From: a virus
Taxonomy: Duplodnaviria > Heunggongvirae > Uroviricota > Caudoviricetes
Virus record (IMG/VR): IMGVR_UViG_2531839666_000012
Length of the DNA stretch: 37,013 nt
Strand: one strand, 5' to 3'
Shown here: positions 4,405 to 36,700 of the stretch, piece after piece
How positions within the stretch are numbered: position 1 is the first letter of the stretch
Layout: each line of letters opens with the position of its first letter
The notes under the pieces: generated by a model
The model's input: the letters and a program-made list of their open reading frames with translations, nothing else
What the model was told of the DNA's origin: nothing
The model's database searches: none
Position numbers and translations under genes: made by a program

Positions 4405-4660
4405 TGCCCCGAAAATTTTAAATGTCTCACAATTCAGACGGTTGACAGTTGTCTGATTTGCGGGGAGTTTGTTAAAAGAAACTGGCATGGTGAATCCCCC
4501 TGAGCGGAGGGGCATATCAGCGACAGGTGTTTGGTTACATCCCTTATCCTTTCTGTGCGGGTTCAGGTGCTGATACTGAACTCACCGGGAGGCACCCGGC
4601 ACCATGCGCATGATGATACAGATACGCAGCGTCAGCCCCTCTCCGGAGGGGCTTTTCTGT
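4405..4660 (+). repeat. Hairpin-rich noncoding element, copy A (candidate sRNA gene)
   Basis: Shares with copy B a CA-rich box CTCACAATTCAG, TTGACA/TTGAAG -35-like hexamer, GC hairpin CCCCCTGAGCGGAGGGG, box CTGAACTCACCGGGAGGCACCCGGCA and terminator hairpin AGCCCCTCtccgGAGGGGCT+TTTT (4634-4660). Confidence 0.5.
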
Positions 4661-4892
4661 GCCGGATACATCACAGTTTCTGGAACCTTGGGTACTACAG
4701 TATCAGTCAGGGTGCTATATTTTCAGATGTGATGAAAGCCTGTCAGCAGGCAGGGCGTATCGGAAATGACCCAGTAGAGAAAACGTTGACTCAGATACCG
4801 GTGCTGAGTTACCGGGAAACCGGCATCACATGACCGCTATCCTTCCAGGCCCGTCCGCTCCGGTGGGCCTTTTTACTGCAGAAAACAGGTTC

Positions 4893-5148
4893 CCCGTTAA
4901 ATGCTATGTTGCTCACAATTCAGTCAGTTGAAGGTTGTCTTCCCGACTGAGAATTTGTTAAAAAATTTCTGCATGATGAATCCCCCTGTGCGGAGGGGCG
5001 GCTGGTGTACGGTATGGTCTCTGATGATCGTTAGCGAGAATGACGCGGGTTCGGTGGCACCGGGCTGAACTCACCGGGAGGCACCCGGCATCATGCAATG
5101 AACGGTACATAGCGCTACTCCAGCCCCTCTCCGGAGGGGCTTTCTTAT
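4893..5148 (+). repeat. Hairpin-rich noncoding element, copy B (candidate sRNA gene)
   Basis: Paralogue of copy A about 486 bp downstream with the same conserved boxes and terminator hairpin (5122-5148); a minus-strand terminator (GCCCGCAT/ATGCGGGC after an A-run) follows at 5152-5181. Confidence 0.5.
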
Positions 5149-5378
5149 GGATAAAAAAAGCCCGCATGGTGAGATGCGGGCAGCAAGGAATAAACAACAA
5201 AACGTGAAGTAATCAATTTTTCAGCTGGCGAATAATACCCGACAGTAATCACTCTGCGCAACTGCGCGGCCTTTTTCGTATTGCGGGCTGTAGTCTTCCT
5301 TCTGTCATTGTCCTGTAACTTCCGGACTTCAGCCCGCCCCTTATCTGACTCACAACATTATCCCGACCGGGAGGATTC

Positions 5379-6855: not shown

Positions 6856-6909
6856 TGAATCGCCCCGGGAATCCTGGAGACTAAACTCCTTGAGAGAGAG
6901 GTAAACAGG

Positions 6910-7236
6910 ATGACTAAAAATACGCGCTTTTCCCCTGAGGTCCGTCAGCGGGCCGTTCGTATGGTTATCGAAAGCCAGAATGACTATGACTCGCAGTGGG
7001 CGGCCATCAGCTCCATCGCCCCTAAAATCGGCTGTACGCCTGAGACCCTGCGTACCTGGCTGCGTCAGTATGAGCGCGATGCCGGTGCAGGTGACGGCGG
7101 ACTGAGCACCACTGAACGTCAGCGTCTGAAGGAACTGGAGCGTGAAAACCGCGAACTGCGCCGCAGCAACGATATCCTGCGCCAGGCTTCCGCGTATTTT
7201 GCGAAGGCGGAGTTCGACCGCCTGTGGAAAAAATAG
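6910..7236 (+). CDS. IS3-family transposase OrfA (HTH/leucine zipper)
   Basis: 108 aa, [19 protein letters not shown]... matches recalled IS629/IS1203 OrfA; ends at an A6 slippery run (7228-7233). Confidence 0.85.
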
Positions 7237-8123
7237 CGCCTCTGGTGGATACCCTGCGTGGTGCGCACGGGGTCGGACCGGTATGCCACGAGCTGGCTGT
7301 CGCCCCGTCAACGTATTACCGGCATCGTGCGCATCAACGGCATCCGGATAAACGCAGTCAGCGGGCACAGCGTGATGACCTGCTGAAGCCGGAGATACAG
7401 CGCGTGTACGATGAAAACCACAGCGTGTACGGTGTGCGCAAGGTCTGGCGCCAGTTGTTGCGTGAGGGGGTGACCGTGGCCAGGTGCACAGTAGAACGGC
7501 TGATGAAGGTGATGGGGCTTGCCGGTGTGCGCCGGGGTAAAAAGGTCCGCACCACAGTCAGCCGGAAAGAAGCCGCTGCGGGTGACCGGGTGAACCGCCA
7601 GTTCGTGGCAGAACGCCCCGACCAGCTGTGGGTGGCTGACTTCACGTATGTGAGCACCTGGCAGGGCTTCGCTTACGTGGCGTTCATCATCGATGTGTTC
7701 GCCGGCGTCATTGTGGGCTGGCGGGTCTCATCGTCGATGAAAACGACGTTCGTGCTGGATGCACTGGAGCAGGCGCTGTGGGCCCGTCGCCCGTCGGGCA
7801 CCATCCATCACTCAGATAAGGGGTCACAATATGTGTCGCTGGCATACACTCAGCGGCTTAAGGATGCAGAGTTGCTGGCGTCAACCGGCAGCACAGGCGA
7901 CTCATATGACAACGCGATGGCGGAGAGCATCAACGGACTTTATAAAGCGGAGGTGATACATCGTAAGAGCTGGAAAAACCGCGCCGAAGTGGAACTGGCC
8001 ACACTGACGTGGGTGGACTGGTACAATAACCGACGGTTGCTGGAACGACTGGGTCATATCCCGCCGGCAGAAGCGGAAAAGGCATATTACGCTTCCATCG
8101 GAAATGGTGGTCTGGCAGCCTGA
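7224..8123 (+). CDS. IS3-family transposase OrfB (DDE catalytic domain)
   Basis: 299 aa in the -1 frame relative to orfA, overlapping its 3' end; likely made as an OrfAB fusion by programmed -1 frameshift. Confidence 0.85.
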
Positions 8124-8165
8124 GTTCACAGATAAAACACTCTCCCGGAAAACCGGGGCGGTTCA

Positions 8166-9309: not shown

Positions 9310-9526
9310 ATGTACCAGATGGAAAAAAGTCACAACAGGTGTGTCATACACCACGTCAGCGGTGGGAACGGGCTACTGGTTCCTGCAGTTGCTGGACAGG
9401 GTTTCCCCGTCTCAGTGGGCGGCAATAGGCGTGCTGGGGAGTCTGCTGTTTGGTCTGCTGACGTACCTGACGAACCTGTATTTCAAGATTAAAGAAGACC
9501 GTCGTAAGGCGGCGCGGGGAGAGTAG
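9310..9526 (+). CDS. S: Phage 21 S-type pinholin (class II holin), frame-disrupted at an A6 run as sequenced
   Basis: C-terminal 60 aa ([51 protein letters not shown]) match recalled S21; dual-start ATGs at 9310 and 9319 (MYQMEK) are in the +1 frame relative to the body and join it only if the A6 run 9323-9328 is A5; the track ORF 9236-9526 is the same body with a non-homologous N-terminal extension. Confidence 0.7.
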
Positions 9527-14928: not shown

Positions 14929-15218
14929 CCCGACCCGGGGGGGGTATCATCCGGCGTAAAAAACGATCGCTCCGGACACCGCGCCCCCTCTCACGCAGAG
15001 AAAAAATTCCCGTTTCAGGTCAGTTAACATGTTAACTGGCTGCACGGGCATTTTTGCAGTTTTTATCTTTATTATTCAGTTTGTTGCGCGGAAAAAATGT
15101 TAACAGGCTTTTTCAGCAAATGTTAACCAGGCAGCAGTTAACATTTGCGGCATGAGACGCCGGGAAAAATGGGCTGAACCATACCCGGCTGAGTGCATTC
15201 TGGACCCTGGAGGAGGCT
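14929..15218. promoter_or_regulatory. Candidate cos / terminase-binding region
   Basis: G8 run at 14937-14944 followed by four GTTAAC-containing repeats (CAGTTAACATGTTAACTGG, AATGTTAACAGG, AATGTTAACCAGG, CAGTTAACATTTG) between HNH and terS. Confidence 0.35.
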
Positions 15219-15755
15219 GTGCTGACAACGCAAAAACGAAAATTTGCGCTGGCGCTCATGTCCGGGAAAAACAAAACAGCGTCAGCCATTGCCGCCGGTT
15301 ATTCGGCGAAGACAGCCAGGGTTAAAGGCTCGCAGCTGGCAAAAGATCCGGAGGTGCTCGCGTTTATAGCCCGTAAGCAGTGCGAGACGGTAGAGGTGGA
15401 TGAGGTTCCTGTTTACCGGCAGAAAAAATCAGAGCAGGAGGATAAACCCCGTCGCCGTGAGGCGGCTGCAATACCACAGCCGGACGAAACAAATCCGGAG
15501 ATGCCACTGCCCGTGGTGATATCTCCTGGTATTGAGTATATGGATGACGGTCTTCCCGATCCGGTGAAAGCGATGGGGCGTCTTCTGGTGGAGAACATTA
15601 ATACCGACCCCAGGCTGGCGCTGGATGTGGCTTATAAGCTGGCACAGTTCACGCACCACAAAAAAGGGGATGCCGGTAAAAAATCGGCAAAAGGTGACGC
15701 GGCGAAAAAAGCGGCTAACCGTTTTGCGGTGCCACCACCCCCCGACTGGTGGTGA
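15219..15755 (+). CDS. Terminase small subunit
   Basis: GTG 15219 with SD AGGAGG 8 nt upstream; N-terminal region resembles P27-family TerS; directly precedes terL. Confidence 0.65.
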   Translation: MLTTQKRKFALALMSGKNKTASAIAAGYSAKTARVKGSQLAKDPEVLAFIARKQCETVEVDEVPVYRQKKSEQEDKPRRREAAAIPQPDETNPEMPLPVVISPGIEYMDDGLPDPVKAMGRLLVENINTDPRLALDVAYKLAQFTHHKKGDAGKKSAKGDAAKKAANRFAVPPPPDWW

Positions 15756-15777: not shown

Positions 15778-16083
15778 ATGATACCTGTGTGGAGCACGGC
15801 CTGCCCGGACTGGGCAGAGCGCCTGAAAAAGGGGCTGTCGATTATTCCGGCTCCGATTTACCCGGACCAGGCCGCACATGCCCTGGCGATTTTTAAACAA
15901 CTGCGGATTGTGGATGCACCGGGCAGCCCGACGTTCGGGGAGTCCTGTGCACCGTGGGTGTTTGATCTGGTGGCTGCCCTGTTTGGCTCCTACGATGCGC
16001 AGACCGGTGTACGCCATATAAAGGAAGTGTTCATTCTGATACCCAAAAAAACAGCAAGTCCACGCTGGCTGCCGGGATCATGA
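15778..16083 (+). CDS. Terminase large subunit, N-terminal segment (frame broken at an A7 run)
   Basis: Ends ...ILIPKKTASPRWLPGS*; the -1 frame across the A7 run at 16045-16051 reads the Walker A P-loop NSKSTLAAGIMM... and continues into the next ORF. Confidence 0.8.
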   Translation: MIPVWSTACPDWAERLKKGLSIIPAPIYPDQAAHALAIFKQLRIVDAPGSPTFGESCAPWVFDLVAALFGSYDAQTGVRHIKEVFILIPKKTASPRWLPGS

Positions 16084-17438
16084 TGACGGCGCTGTTACTG
16101 AACTGGCGGCAGGCGGCGGGCTACACCATTCTGGCCCCGACCGTGGAGGTGGCGGCTAATGCCTTCAATCCTGCCAGGGATATGGTACGACGGGACGATG
16201 ATCTGGATGACCTCTGTCAGGTGCAGACACATATCCGGACCATCACCCATCGGGTGACGGACACCACCCTGAAGGTGGTGGCAGCCGATCCGAATACGGT
16301 GTCCGGTATCAAGTCCGTGGGGACACTGATTGATGAACTGTGGCTGTTTGGCAAGCAGTACAAAGCGGAGGACATGTTACGTGAAGCCATAGGTGGCCTT
16401 GCCTCCCGCCCGGAAGGGTTTGTGGTGTATACGACCACCCAGTCGAATGAACCGCCCGCCGGGGTGTTCAGACAGAAACTGCAGTACGCCCGGGATGTGC
16501 GCGACGGCAAAATTCATGATCCGCACTTTCTGCCGGTGATATTTGAGCATCCGCCGGAGATGGTGGAGCGCGGTGAGCACCTGCTGATGGAAAACCTCGC
16601 CATGGTCAATCCGAATCTCGGTTATTCGGTGGATGAGGCTTTTCTGTACCGGGAGTACCGTAAAGCCCGGGAGGCTGGTGAGGAAGCATTTCGTGGCTTC
16701 ATGTCAAAACATGCCAATGTGGAAATTGGTCTTGCCCTGCGTTCTGACCGCTGGACGGGTGCGGATTTCTGGGAGCAGCAGGGCAGGCGCGTCAGCCTGG
16801 ACGATATCCTGCAGCGCGCTGATGTGGTGACGGTGGGGATTGACGGCGGGGGCCTGGATGATCTGCTGGGAATGTACGTGATTGGCCGTGACAGGGAAAC
16901 CCGCGAATGGCTGGGCTGGGGCCATGCCTGGGCGCATGAAACCGCGGTGGTCAGACGGAAGAGTGAGGCATCCCGGTTTCAGGATTTTGTGGCCTGTGGA
17001 GACATGACGATTGTCCGTCGGGTCGGGGATGACACGGCGGAAGTGGCGGAGTATGTGCGTCGTATTCATGAGGCTGAGTTACTGGAGCATATCGGTATTG
17101 ACCCGTCAGGTGTGGGGCAGATTCTGGATTCACTGGTGGAAGCCGGGATCCCCGACGGAATTGTTGTGGGGATAAGCCAGGGCTGGAAGCTGGGCGGGGC
17201 CATAAAAACCACCGAGCGCAAACTGGCTGAGGGAGTACTGGTGCATGGTGGTCAGCCACTGATGGCCTGGTGCGTTGGCAATGCCCGGGTGGAGCCGAAA
17301 GGTAACGCCATCCTTATTACCAAACAGGCCAGCGGACGGGGGAAAATTGACCCGCTGATGGCGCTCTTCAATGCGGTATCCCTGATGTCCCTGAATCCGG
17401 AGCCGAAAAAGAAAGAATATGCGGTTTTTTTCATATAA
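16080..17438 (+). CDS. Terminase large subunit, main segment (ATPase remainder plus nuclease domain)
   Basis: 452 aa continuing the upstream ORF once one A is added at 16045-16051; size and position fit a Terminase_1-type TerL. Confidence 0.8.
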   Translation: MMTALLLNWRQAAGYTILAPTVEVAANAFNPARDMVRRDDDLDDLCQVQTHIRTITHRVTDTTLKVVAADPNTVSGIKSVGTLIDELWLFGKQYKAEDMLREAIGGLASRPEGFVVYTTTQSNEPPAGVFRQKLQYARDVRDGKIHDPHFLPVIFEHPPEMVERGEHLLMENLAMVNPNLGYSVDEAFLYREYRKAREAGEEAFRGFMSKHANVEIGLALRSDRWTGADFWEQQGRRVSLDDILQRADVVTVGIDGGGLDDLLGMYVIGRDRETREWLGWGHAWAHETAVVRRKSEASRFQDFVACGDMTIVRRVGDDTAEVAEYVRRIHEAELLEHIGIDPSGVGQILDSLVEAGIPDGIVVGISQGWKLGGAIKTTERKLAEGVLVHGGQPLMAWCVGNARVEPKGNAILITKQASGRGKIDPLMALFNAVSLMSLNPEPKKKEYAVFFI

Positions 17439-29162: not shown

Positions 29163-30317
29163 ATGAAAAAAACGACAGTGGCACTTTCTGCTGTAGCAGT
29201 GGCAGTGATGTTTGCTGCGGGGGCGCAGGCAGCAGAAGTTTATAATAAAGATGGTAATAAACTGGATCTTTACGGGCGTGTAACCGCTCTGCATTACTTC
29301 TCGGATGATAAAGGTAATGACGGAGACCAGACTTATGCTCGTCTCGGCTTTAAAGGCGAAACGCAGATTAATGATCAACTGACCGGATTTGGTCAGTGGG
29401 AATACCAGTTCTCTGGTAACAAAACGGAATCTGAAGGTTCCGCGGGAAATAAAACCCGTCTGGCATTTGCAGGTCTGAGATTTGCAGATGTTGGTACCAT
29501 TGATTACGGACGTAACTATGGTATTGCTTATGATGTCGGATCATATACTGACGTACTGCCTGAGTTTGGTGGTGATGGCTGGACGCAGACCGATAACTTT
29601 ATGACGGCCCGAACTTCCGGTGTCCTGACTTACCGTAATACAGACTTCTTCGGGCTGGTTGATGGTCTGAATTTTGCGGCGCAGTATCAGGGCAAAAATG
29701 AGCGTGATGACCTTCAGAAGGCTAATGGCGACGGGTATGGTTTCTCGGCCAGCTATGAGTTTGATGGTTTTGGTTTTGTCGCTGCGTATACCAAGTCAGA
29801 TCGTACCGATAAGCAGGTTCAGGGGTTGAATGGTACTGCAGATGTTCTTGATCCTGAATCAGGTAAAAAGGTTGGAGAAAAAACAGTTGACTCAGGTAGT
29901 GTGGCAAAAGGTAAACATGCTGAATTCTGGGGAACTGGTCTTAAATATGATGCCAATAACCTGTATCTGGCAGCAGTGTATTCTGAAACCCAGAATATGA
30001 CGACCTTTGGTGATCAAGGTGTTGCGGATAAAGCTCAGAATATCGAAGCCGTTGTTCAGTATCAGTTTGATTTTGGTCTGCGCCCGTCCCTTGCCTACCT
30101 TCAGTCCCGCGGACAGGATGTTATGGTTGGTGGTGTGAACCATGGCGATCAGGATCTGGTTAAATATATTGATGTCGGTGCGACTTATTACTTTAACAAG
30201 AATATGTCCACCTATGTTGATTATAAAATTAACCTGATTGATGAAAGTGAATTTACCCGGAAAGCCGGTGTTGCGACAGATAATATCGTTGCTGTGGGTA
30301 TGACTTATCAGTTCTGA
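29163..30317 (+). CDS. Outer-membrane general porin, OmpC/OmpF/NmpC/Lc family (phage moron)
   Basis: 384 aa; signal peptide [38 protein letters not shown], the PEFGGD L3-loop signature, and terminal MTYQF. Confidence 0.9.
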
Positions 30318-31979: not shown

Positions 31980-32515
31980 ACACGGCAGCGGAGGCCATCC
32001 GTGCCCTGTCGCTGCAGGTGCCGGGATTCCGCTGTCAGATGAACGAAGGATGGTATCAGATACGCATTGCGGGCAGGGATGTATCTGAACAGGAGCTTCA
32101 TTCCAGAGTATGTGAGCCGTTGAATGACGGGGATGTTATCCATCTGGTGCCCCGGACGGAGGGGGCAAAAAACGGCGGTGTTCTTCAGGTGGTGGCCGGT
32201 GCTGTTCTGGCTGTTGTGGGATATGTGTTCAGCTGGACCGGTATTGGTGCTGTCATCGGTAATCTTGGGGTGGCCATGATGGTGGGGGGTATCACGCAGA
32301 TGCTCACCCCCAGGGCGAAAACACCGTCTGCCACGACAACAGATAATGGTAAACGGAACACGTATTTTTCGTCACTGGACAACATGATTGCCCAGGGTAA
32401 CCCGATGCCGGTGCCTTACGGTGAAATGCTGGTTGGTTCACGACGGATATCCCAGGACATCAGCACCCGTGATGAGGGCGGAGACGGGAAAGTGGTGGTT
32501 ATCGGGCGGGGATAA
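31877..32515 (+). CDS. I: Tail assembly protein I
   Basis: LASP...RICL.GDLQRFGRRI, WYQ.RIAGRDVS, TTDNGK.NTYFSSLDNM.AQGN and GEM.VGSR match recalled lambda gpI. Confidence 0.85.
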   Translation: MATTNAFCLASPPLVRICLHGDLQRFGRRISLYVNTAAEAIRALSLQVPGFRCQMNEGWYQIRIAGRDVSEQELHSRVCEPLNDGDVIHLVPRTEGAKNGGVLQVVAGAVLAVVGYVFSWTGIGAVIGNLGVAMMVGGITQMLTPRAKTPSATTTDNGKRNTYFSSLDNMIAQGNPMPVPYGEMLVGSRRISQDISTRDEGGDGKVVVIGRG

Positions 32516-33190
32516 AAATAAAAAATCCCGCAGAGTTAGTGGAGCTGCGGGAAATAACGATGAAGATTAATGTTATGGAGTTATTTCTTTGGGCAGAAAA
32601 ACATTAACGCAGCGAAATTATAAGCGCTACATGGATTTTGCGAAAATGTGAAGAAATTCAGAAATTTTTTGCTGCAGAGGTGCAGGGAGCTTGCCGGGTA
32701 TCTGTGGCAGAAGACAGAAAACATCATGCCGGGGTTAAGGGATAAAAAAATCCCGCAGAGTTAGCGGAGCTGCGGGACAGAACCGATGAAGATTAACGTT
32801 CAAGGAGTTTTGTTTTTATTGACCCGAAAAAACTGTAACGCCCCGGAATGATATCTGCCATGGGGACGCACAGGAAATGTGAAGAAATTCAGACTTTTTC
32901 TGTCGCAGGTTTACAGAACGGATTACCGCCGGGGTACCAGTGGCGTAAATGAGCCGGATGTTGTGGTGCGGCTGAAGCAAAAAAATCTCCCGTAATATCG
33001 CCGGATACTGACGGGAGACGAATAGTCACCTTAAGGAGGTCTGATAATTATTGCTTTTATTGAGCAAAAAAACTGTAACGCTGCATCATTATAGCGGCTA
33101 CAGGCAATTGCCGGAAATGTGAAGAATTTCAGAAATTTTATTCCGTCATGACACAGGCACCCTCCGGGGTGCCTGTTGTTTTTGGGCATA
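32516..33190. repeat. Three tandem sRNA-like modules between I and J
   Basis: Each module has a minus-strand terminator (hairpins 32527-32551, 32752-32776, 32987-33017, with T-runs on the minus strand), a minus-strand -10 hexamer about 70 bp to the right (TATAAT 32617-32622, TATCAT 32848-32853, TATAAT 33088-33093) and a conserved box GGAAATGTGAAGAAATTCAGAAATTTT; a plus-strand terminator lies at 33154-33183. Confidence 0.55.
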
Positions 33191-33226
33191 AACAGATTCA
33201 GACATCAGACAGGAGAGGGGGACAGA

Positions 33227-33923
33227 GTGGGTAAAGGGGGCGGCAAGGGGGCACACACCGCGTGAGGCGAAGGACAATCTCAAATCCACGCAGATGATGA
33301 GCGTGATTGATGCCATTGGTGAGGGACCGGTGGAAGGTCCGGTGAAGGGACTGCAGAGTATTCTGGTGAACAAAACCCCGCTGACGGACACGGACGGTAA
33401 TCCCGTGATACACGGTGTGACCGCCGTCTGGCGCGCCGGGGAGCAGGAGCAGACACCGCCGGAAGGCTTTGAGTCCTCCGGGGCAGAAACCGCACTGGGC
33501 GTGGAGGTGACGAAGGCAAAGCCGGTGACGCGCACCATCACGTCAGCGAACATTGACCGTCTGCGGGTCACCTTCGGGGTACAGTCACTGGTGGAGACCA
33601 CCTCAAAGGGTGACCGTAATCCCTCTTCTGTCCGCCTGCTGATTCAGCTTGAGTGTAACGGGCACTGGGTGACGGAGAAGGATATCACCATTAACGGCAA
33701 GACCACCTCGCAGTACCTGACGTCTGTGATTCTGAATAATCTCCCTGAGCGCCCCTTTAACATCCGGATGGTCAGGGAGACGGCGGACAGCACCACGGAC
33801 CAGCTGCAGAACAGAACGCTGTGGTCGTCATACACCGAAATCATCGATGTGAAACAGTGCTGCCGAACACGGCCATTGTGGGGCTGCAGGTGGATGCGGA
33901 GCAGTTTGGTGGCCAGCAGCTGA
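33227..33923 (+). pseudogene. J: Tail tip / host specificity protein J, N-terminal part (frame disrupted)
   Basis: GTG 33227 with SD AGGAGA reads MGKGGGKGAHTA* and hits a stop after 12 codons; the J-like frame (HTPREAKDNLKSTQ.MSVIDAI...) is +1 from the G5 run at 33247-33251 and shifts again near 33862. Confidence 0.75.
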
Positions 33924-36700
33924 CGGTGAACTACCATATCCGTGGTCGCATCATTCAGGTGCCGTCAAACTATGACCCGGAAAAACGCACCTACAGCGGT
34001 ATCTGGGACGGGAGTCTGAAACCGGCATACAGCAATAACCCGGCCTGGTGCCTGTGGGACATGCTGACCCACCGCGCTACGGGATGGGAAAACGCCTGGG
34101 GGCCGCGGATGTGGACAAGTGGGCACTGTATGCCATCGGGCAGTACTGCGACCAGACGGTCCCGGATGGTTTCGGGGGGCACAGAGCCGCGGATGACTTT
34201 CAATGCGTACCTGTCACAGCAGCGTAAGGTCTGGGATGTTCTGGGGGATTTCTGCTCGGCGATGCGCTGTATGCCGGTATGGAACGGCCAGACGCTGACG
34301 TTCGTTCAGGACCGCCCGTCGGATGTGGTGTGGCCGTACACCAACAGCGATGTGGTGGTGGATGATAACGGCGTGGGGTTCCGCTACAGCTTCAGTGCCC
34401 TGAAGGACCGGCACACGGCGGTGGAGGTGAATTACACCGACCCGCAGAACGGCTGGCAGACTTCCACGGAACTGGTGGAAGACCCGGACGCCATCCTGCG
34501 CTACGGGCGCAATCTGCTGAAGATGGATGCGTTCGGCTGTACCAGCCGCGGTCAGGCCCACCGTGCCGGACTGTGGGTGATAAAGACAGAACTGCTGGAA
34601 ACGCAGACGGTGGATTTCACGCTCGGGTCACAGGGGCTGCGGCACACGCCCGGTGACATCATTGAAATCTGTGATAACGACTACGCCGGGACCCTGACCG
34701 GCGGACGCATCCTGTCCATGGATGCCGCCAGCCGTACCCTGACGCTGGACCGTGAGGTGACACTGCCGGAAGCAGGGACATCGACGGTGAACCTGATTAA
34801 CGGCAGCGGTAAGCCGGTGCGCGTGGACATCACCGCACACCCCGCCCCGGACCGGATACAGGTCAGCGTCCTGCCGGATGGCGTGGAGACATACGGTGTG
34901 TGGGGACTCTCCCTGCCGTCACTGCGTCGTCGCCTGTTCCGCTGTGTTTCCATCCGGGAAAACACGGACGGCACCTTTGCCATCACGGCAGTGCAGCACG
35001 TACCGGAAAAAGAAGCCATCGTGGATAACGGGGCCACCTTTGAGCCGCTCTCCGGTTCACTGAACAGCGTCATCCCGCCGGCTGTGCAGCACCTCACGGT
35101 GGAGGTGAGTGCCTCAGACGGCCAGTATCTGGCGCTGGCGAAATGGGACACGCCGCGGGTGGTGAAGGGCGTGCGCTTCAGTCTGCGCCTGACCAGCGGA
35201 AACGGTGAAAACAGCCGCCTGGTGACCAGCGCCATCACTGCCGACACGGAGCACCGTTTCAGTGGCCTGCCTCTGGGGGAATACACCCTGACGGTCAGGG
35301 CGATAAACAGCTACGGCCAGCAGGGCGAACCTGCCACCACCGCGTTCCGGATTAATGCGCCTGCAGCACCGGCCAGCATTGAACTGACGCCGGGGTATTA
35401 TCAGATAACAGCAGTACCGGTGCTGGCGGTGTATGACCCGACGGTACAGTTTGAGTTCTGGTTCTCGGAGGCAAAAATCGCAGACACATCTCAGGTGGAA
35501 ACCTCTGCCCGTTATCTGGGGACAGGCAGCCAGTGGAGTGTCTCCGGCCCGCACATTAAGCCGGGGAGGGATTTCTGGTTTTATGTGCGCAGCGTCAACC
35601 TGGTGGGGAAATCTGCGTTTGTGGAAGCCAGTGGCCGGGCGAGCAATGATGCGGAAGGGTATCTGGGGCTGTTTCGGGAAAAGATAGGAAAACTGCATCT
35701 GGCACAGGGGATGTGGGAGCTGATTGATAACAGCCAGCTTGACAATGAGATGGCGGAGATGAAGACCACCATCACCGAAACCCGCAATGAAATCACGCAG
35801 ACGGTCAGTAAAACCCTGGAAGACCAGAGCGCCACCATACAGCAGATACAGCGGGTGCAGACAGACACAAATAACGACCTGGCTGCGCTGTACATGCTGA
35901 AGGTGCAGAAAACAAAAAACGGCATTCCGTATGTTGCCGGTATAGGTGCGGGGATTGAGGATGCTGATGGCCAGCCCCTGAGCAATATACTGCTGCAGGC
36001 GGACCGTATCGCGATGATTAACCCGGAGAACGGCAACACCACGCCGCTGTTTGTGGCGCAGGGGAATCAGCTGTTCATGAACGATGTGTTCCTGAAGCGG
36101 TTGTTTGCAGTGAGCATCACCTCGTCCGGCAATCCCCCGACGTTCTCCCTGACGCCGGACGGCAGGCTGACGGCCCGTAATGCTGATATCAGCGGACATA
36201 TCAGTGCGAACTCGGGCACGCTCAATAATGTGACCATTAACCAGAACTGCCGGATACTTGGAAAACTGTCTGCCAACCAGATTGAAGGCGATATTGTTAA
36301 AACCGTGGGGAAGGCTTTCCCGCGGGACTCCCGCGCACCGGAGCGGTGGCCATCGGGGACCATTACCGTCAGGATTTATGACGATCAGCCTTTTGACCGG
36401 CAAATTGTGATCCCGGCAGTGGCTTTCAGCGGCGCTAAACATGAGAGAGAGCATAACGATATTTATTCATCATGCCGGCTGATGGTGAAATGTAACGGCA
36501 GGGTGCTTTTTGAAAGGACGGCGCTGGCTGAGTCTCAGGTGTATTCAGGGGTGATTGATATGCCTGCAGGAAGGGGGCATATGACGCTGGAGTTTTCTGT
36601 GTCTGCCTGGCTGGTGAATGGATGGTACCCGACAGCGAGTATTAGCGATCTGCTGGTTGTCGTGATGAAGAAGTCCACGGCGGGTATCGGTATTTCGTGA
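33821..36700 (+). CDS. J: Tail tip / host specificity protein J, main body
   Basis: 959 aa colinear with recalled lambda gpJ (e.g. [87 protein letters not shown]); contains one internal out-of-frame segment. Confidence 0.85.

Follow-up and report, generated by a model that had tools for sequence, protein, structure and literature searches.

The tail tip gene J of this prophage is broken in the deposited sequence by four single-base changes of length, and these are likely homopolymer or assembly errors in a region that is repeated among prophages. The window, that is the whole stretch of 37,013 nucleotides analysed here, comes from the draft genome of Escherichia coli O128:H2 strain 9.0111 and represents a lambdoid prophage resembling Stx phages. 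An earlier note on this DNA had pointed to two of the changes as a compensating frameshift pair inside J, due either to two independent errors of sequencing or to a real double mutation with compensation. The pair is best filed as an artefact of the record and not as a biological element. Since no further public genome shows these changes and both affect short C or G runs, errors of base calling or assembly in an old draft genome are their most likely origin.

Judged from its relatives, whose gpJ annotation spans the equivalent 3474 nt, gene J (tail tip attachment or host specificity protein) would extend over 33227..36700 on the plus strand, with a GTG start codon at 33227 and 1157 codons once the four single sites are corrected. 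As deposited, it is instead divided over three open reading frames, at 33227-33265, 33294-33923 and 33821/33890-36700. The second of these (33294..33923, plus strand, 209 aa, J residues ~23-212) is identical to EII22701.1, labelled 'hypothetical protein EC90111_3259 [Escherichia coli 9.0111]' and the sole accession recovered by exact look-up among ~15 billion proteins. The third (33890..36700, plus strand, 936 aa), which holds the out-of-frame segment, equals EII22683.1, a 'fibronectin type III protein [Escherichia coli 9.0111]' that forms a singleton cluster in the same look-up. Sixteen alternative starts were tried for this C-terminal frame, and only the GTG at 33890 gives the deposited protein; shorter versions with ATG starts (34193, 34262) also match database entries, and it was the 34193 version that led to nine draft contigs. 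The overlap between the frames at 33294..33923 and 33821..36700 is created by the replacement of 'AC' with 'G' at 33862. Strain 9.0111 is tabulated as O128:H2, with WGS prefix AEZZ and the J. Craig Venter Institute as sequencing centre (PMC3359367).

Its domains, its similarity over the full length and its place in the gene order make J an ordinary representative of the lambda gpJ (TipJ) family. Pfam recovers all six J domains in the closest relative (FNIII-A_GpJ, the hub domain Phage-tail_3, Ig_J, Ig_J_second, Phage_Tail_Tip and Ig_GpJ_C), and five of the six are retained in the 936-aa frame as deposited, with FNIII-A left in the separate upstream frame. According to the annotation of near-identical prophages and the frames of the window, J follows the tape measure gene and M, L, K and I in the tail module. 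The corrected gene aligns with the lambda tip attachment protein J (PDB 8iyk, 8k35, 8xcg, 9e7m) over residues 1-834 (8iyk_J, E-value 0, 1710 bits) and also with its C-terminal receptor-binding part, and it shares the same Pfam set and position among the tail genes. The lambda protein differs in being 1132 rather than 1157 aa long, with a diverged central fibre and receptor-binding end, and neither it nor any of the relatives has the four frame-shifting single-base changes of the deposited sequence. Measured against the family, J fails just one defining feature, the uninterrupted frame, and only as deposited: the frame is broken in the record and continuous after the four single-base corrections.

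The downstream pair was resolved by alignment with five related J genes. At 34068-34076 the window reads CCCA-CC-GCG, where the second run is C2 (34072..34073, plus strand) and all five aligned relatives have CCC, bearing out the claim that one base is lost in a C run around 34072. The frame is restored, as the earlier note had stated, by a G6 run where all relatives have G5, but this +1 change is found at 34174..34179 (plus strand) and not at 34185-34190, which is 11 nt too far downstream. The sites are accordingly ~100-107 nt apart rather than ~120, and the stretch that is out of frame as deposited (34074..34173, plus strand) amounts to ~34 codons instead of 39 residues; of the 36 residues that had been listed for it, five are the same in both frames, namely the final GG and three more. 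That the other frame encodes a lambda-like peptide holds: it is identical to lambda gpJ 283-318 at 34 of 36 positions, a match far beyond chance, and the out-of-frame codons correspond to gpJ residues ~283-316 of the conserved hub-domain scaffold. The absence of stop codons in the out-of-frame stretch is unremarkable, as ~15% of the 35-codon windows in the same alternative frame of J are stop-free.

Comparison of homologues leaves little doubt as to which frame is maintained. The outcome named earlier as decisive against the proposal, conservation of the as-sequenced frame, was not observed, and homologues conserve the lambda-like frame. Canonical spacing is present in 115 of 117 IMG/VR copies of the stretch, and across 43 distinct DNA variants, codon position 3 of the lambda-like frame accounts for 14 of the 19 variable sites. 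Translation of these variants gives only 8 distinct peptides in the lambda-like frame, as compared to 37 and 33 in the other two. The variation is synonymous in the lambda-like frame, and it is this frame that is under selection. Conservation of the segment extends to remote tail-tip proteins of solved structure (F2 pyocin 25vf, 9l9p, 23gd), and in the lambda gpJ structure it lies in the scaffold of four hub domains, after the FNIII-A insertion (72-215) and before the HDIV insertion (483-569) (PMC10721106).

A second frame-shifting pair, located upstream in J, had been missed by the earlier note. At 20 nt after the start codon, a G5 run at 33247..33251 (plus strand) replaces the G4 of the relatives; with this extra G, J meets a stop 12 codons after its start (33227-33265), having encoded VGKGGGKGAHTA. 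The companion -1 change, back to the starting frame, is the 'G' at 33862..33862 (plus strand), where comparison with relatives gives 'AC', the form also carried by the sequences designated L012 and L016. As J is already interrupted upstream, the downstream pair compensates nothing functional, and the notion of a compensated mutation loses its meaning. Of the two options originally offered, the compensated double mutation is therefore not sustained, there being nothing functional left to rescue, whereas that of sequencing errors fits the evidence: the changes are private to one record, they affect C and G runs, and their reversion yields a protein nearly identical to those of relatives. With all four sites reverted, an uninterrupted J of 1157 aa is obtained, differing from WP_042965431.1 of strain JNEC-KY202 by R143C only. 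The latter stems from a private C to T at 33654, in the FNIII-A domain, at a position occupied by arginine in lambda gpJ and in every relative compared, and it may be a further base-call error.

We then asked whether any of the changes is seen elsewhere. The window shares up to 99.7% identity with the J genes of prophages from complete E. coli genomes, and against the closest three (JNEC-KY202, FHI_NMBU_11 and 2013C-3033) the window displays four length changes of its own inside J. A total of 5,648 places in 5,426 complete genomes of E. coli match 34040-34210, yet none does so at 99% identity or more; the top matches (98.8%) differ by exactly the two indels. The upstream pair is equally absent from these 5,426 genomes. 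For the 33247-33251 region, the best complete-genome match differs by exactly the extra G, and for the 33862 region no exact match was found among the complete E. coli genomes.

The nine draft contigs provide a closer comparison. These are independent assemblies in which the C-terminal 835 aa of J are identical to those of the window, and over the downstream 2,508 nt only three or four synonymous bases differ. At the sites that they cover, they nevertheless show the ordinary form throughout, with G5 in nine of nine, C3 in all seven that reach the site and 'AC' in both that extend to 33862. In exact-pattern scans, the G6 pattern yielded no match in IMG/VR, JGI metagenome contigs or GTDB representative genomes, as opposed to at least 120 matches of the G5 pattern in IMG/VR. 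The C2 pattern was found once in IMG/VR, in the draft of E. coli DEC4C, and not at all in the metagenome contigs or GTDB representative genomes, and both upstream variant patterns (33247-33251 and 33862) had no match in IMG/VR. A search of the 54-aa as-sequenced peptide against a database of 5.8 billion proteins gave no candidate; no weight is attached to this outcome, as the query is short and the null is discounted because the parent protein EII22683.1 is itself a cluster representative in the same collection.

The single further occurrence of C2 (L009, IMGVR_UViG_2534681940_000025, a contig of E. coli DEC4C) shows the same C3 to C2 change at 1580-1604, here uncompensated. It lies in a different J gene, 84% identical, which has a further frameshift upstream and adjoins IS-like sequence, and the frames of this fragmented J are single database entries, so that C2 is private to one record there too. 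DEC4C is another draft of about the same period as 9.0111, and a literature search for the sequencing platform of the two drafts returned only serotype, WGS prefix and sequencing centre.

The remainder of the prophage supplies an internal control. Taken over its full 37 kb, the window has 99.6-99.97% identity to the prophages of FHI_NMBU_11 and JNEC-KY174, and at nine sites it differs by an indel from each of three reference prophages (those of FHI_NMBU_11, JNEC-KY174 and JNEC-KY202). Two of the nine are real alleles (15739 and 16044) and seven are private, namely the four in J and those at 9329, 14937 and 32519. The indel at 15739 gives terS (15219..15755) a variant small-subunit C-terminus, and that at 16044 splits terL into 15778..16083 and 16080..17438 at an A7 run that is A8 in each of the three references. 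Both fall in a locally divergent stretch of 14-16.2 kb with ~60 substitutions, and since these versions of terS and terL occur in several other genomes, complete chromosomes included, they represent real alleles. The terminase indels, in other words, recur in other genomes, and those of J do not.

The form and placement of the J changes are congruent with an artefact. Three of the four are gains or losses of one base in G or C runs, and the fourth turns two bases into one. The four indels lie within 0.93 kb: the first 966 nt of J hold all of them together with five substitutions against the closest complete-genome relative, compared with no indel and three synonymous substitutions in the next 2,508 nt. 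Moreover, the nine short-read contigs all end inside the equivalent of 33629-34126, which marks it as a repeat left unresolved by short-read assemblers, and J-like copies number 2-3 per genome in the median and up to 14. As the errors cluster in a repeat shared among prophages, problems of the assembly consensus are suggested as a contributor.

We hence propose that the prophage would possess an ordinary, intact lambda-type tail-tip gene, into whose deposited consensus four single-base length errors were introduced within the first 950 nt (G4 to G5, AC to G, C3 to C2 and G5 to G6). These would have arisen in base calling or in the making of the consensus, three of the four as miscalled lengths of homopolymer runs. 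The affected part of J is near-identical among several prophages of one genome and is hard to assemble, and a consensus drawn through such a repeat from error-prone reads would be the simplest source of clustered run-length errors. The apparent compensation would then be the chance outcome of errors of opposite sign, with neither mechanism nor function behind it. To judge by the period, the 9.0111 draft may have been produced with a homopolymer-prone technology such as pyrosequencing. The run-length errors of early next-generation and draft assemblies offer a fitting parallel, as these also appear as single-base gains or losses in G or C runs that are private to one draft, leave split 'hypothetical' frames behind and are undone by single-base reversion to an intact conserved gene. 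The parallel is less good in that one of the four changes in J is outside a homopolymer and in that the changes cluster in a repeat shared by prophages. Two observations speak against an artefact: the AC to G change at 33862 is not of the homopolymer type, and the prophage has other seemingly real lesions, an IS3-family insertion and the split terL.

Those lesions form the basis of the principal rival, according to which all four indels are real in strain 9.0111, J is decaying as a pseudogene in a defective prophage and the pairs cancel by chance. We hold this to be unlikely, albeit not without some substance. The split terL and the terS variant are common to other genomes and hence real, an IS3-family element interrupts the esterase gene, and as the prophage carries such damage J may likewise be free to decay. 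Broken J genes are also on record: that of VT1-Sakai is annotated 'truncated protein by a mutation', those of two complete genomes are marked 'frameshifted', and ~2 of the 117 IMG/VR copies are frameshifted in the same 116-nt stretch. Cryptic STEC prophages of the VT1-Sakai type indeed resemble the present case, with a J that is split into overlapping frames in a lambdoid prophage, but the changes described here are found in no other genome examined. Nor is the cancellation an obstacle to decay, as four random single-base gains or losses would cancel in adjacent pairs with a chance of ~0.25 by our own arithmetic, which is unremarkable. What counts against decay is the pattern of damage. J has as many as four private indels for its three or four substitutions that are truly private, an indel share that in our judgement looks too high for neutral decay; the indels crowd into one part of the gene and leave the remaining 2.5 kb clean; neither the nine closest drafts nor the 5,426 complete genomes show any of them; and the corrected gene is otherwise undamaged.

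Far less probable, to the point that we give it little credence, is a real and selected arrangement, whether a compensated double frameshift or a device for recoding or phase variation, in which J remains functional with an alternative segment of 34 residues. The only two points in its support are that the out-of-frame stretch is stop-free and that the frame is restored exactly, and an open window of 35 codons arises by chance at the ~15% given above. It is further contradicted by the upstream extra G, with which J stops 12 codons after its start, and by the nature of the replaced residues, which number among the best-conserved positions in the hub scaffold, distant homologues of solved structure included. 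No homologue keeps the two-frame arrangement, and a programmed frameshift or recoding site was rejected for this reason: a single frame is seen in 115 of the 117 copies from IMG/VR and in every close E. coli copy. Known phase-variable tracts are far longer than C3 and G5. A phase-variable (contingency) locus was likewise rejected, the tracts being only 3 and 5 bases, barely variable and of canonical length in essentially all copies, with no close E. coli match changed. A gene-conversion tract from a decayed paralogous J, which would have brought in the four indels together, was also considered and is unlikely, because neither the 5,426 complete genomes nor IMG/VR contain such a donor allele. 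As for the narrower claim that C2 and G6 are real and that 9.0111 makes, or once made, a J with 34 residues of the hub scaffold out of frame, we rate its chance as very low; it would also require the upstream pair to be artefactual or bypassed. Were it true, a double frameshift with compensation would have arisen naturally and been tolerated within a structural core.

On the preferred reading of four errors in the record, the biological weight of the finding is small and its value is that of quality control. The record annotates J as two unrelated-looking proteins, which should rather be treated as one lambda-type J with four suspect bases, and comparisons of host range or tail fibres that draw on the 9.0111 J sequence should use the corrected frame. 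Even if the changes were real, they would represent merely one more decaying prophage gene.

Several further features of the prophage were noted. The other private indels comprise an additional G after an A6 run at 9329, near the start of a class II holin gene (~9310-9526), where it puts the reading out of frame from about codon 7. A 96-aa frame that still matches Phage_holin_2_1 opens at an ATG further upstream (9236), and its product with that start was not found in the protein collection. The remaining two are intergenic: G8 in place of G7 at 14937, between an HNH endonuclease gene and terS, and an A run two bases shorter at 32519, just after gene I. The portal and prohead protease region consists of two frames, 19651..21015 and 21012..22397; as the portal is annotated as a 'frameshifted' pseudogene in all three related complete genomes, this arrangement is common and not private to the window.

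An insertion of 1310 nt (6856-8165), absent from the near-identical prophages, interrupts a SASA-family (NanS-p-like) carbohydrate esterase gene. It contains frames with HTH_Tnp_1 and rve domains as well as an ALIL pseudoknot at 7191-7307, and is therefore an IS3-family element with a programmed -1 frameshift signal. Two copies of the STnc100 sRNA family (4456-4662 and 4942-5152, 135 and 168 bits) are located between the tRNA/methyltransferase block and the esterase, in what we take to be the slot where Stx phages carry stx; no stx is present in this slot of the prophage.

Within the tail region, a full-length gene for an OmpC-like porin (29163-30317, Porin_1, 481 bits) is placed between the M-like and L-like genes, as it is in related prophages. 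In lambda, I and J are adjacent. Here, ~710 nt (32516-33226) separate the I-like gene from J, with no gene annotated in related prophages and only short minus-strand frames. Finally, the middle of the I-like tail assembly gene (32071-32338) gives no megablast alignment to the relatives and is 42 nt (14 codons) shorter, which from the sequence looks like an in-frame mosaic replacement.
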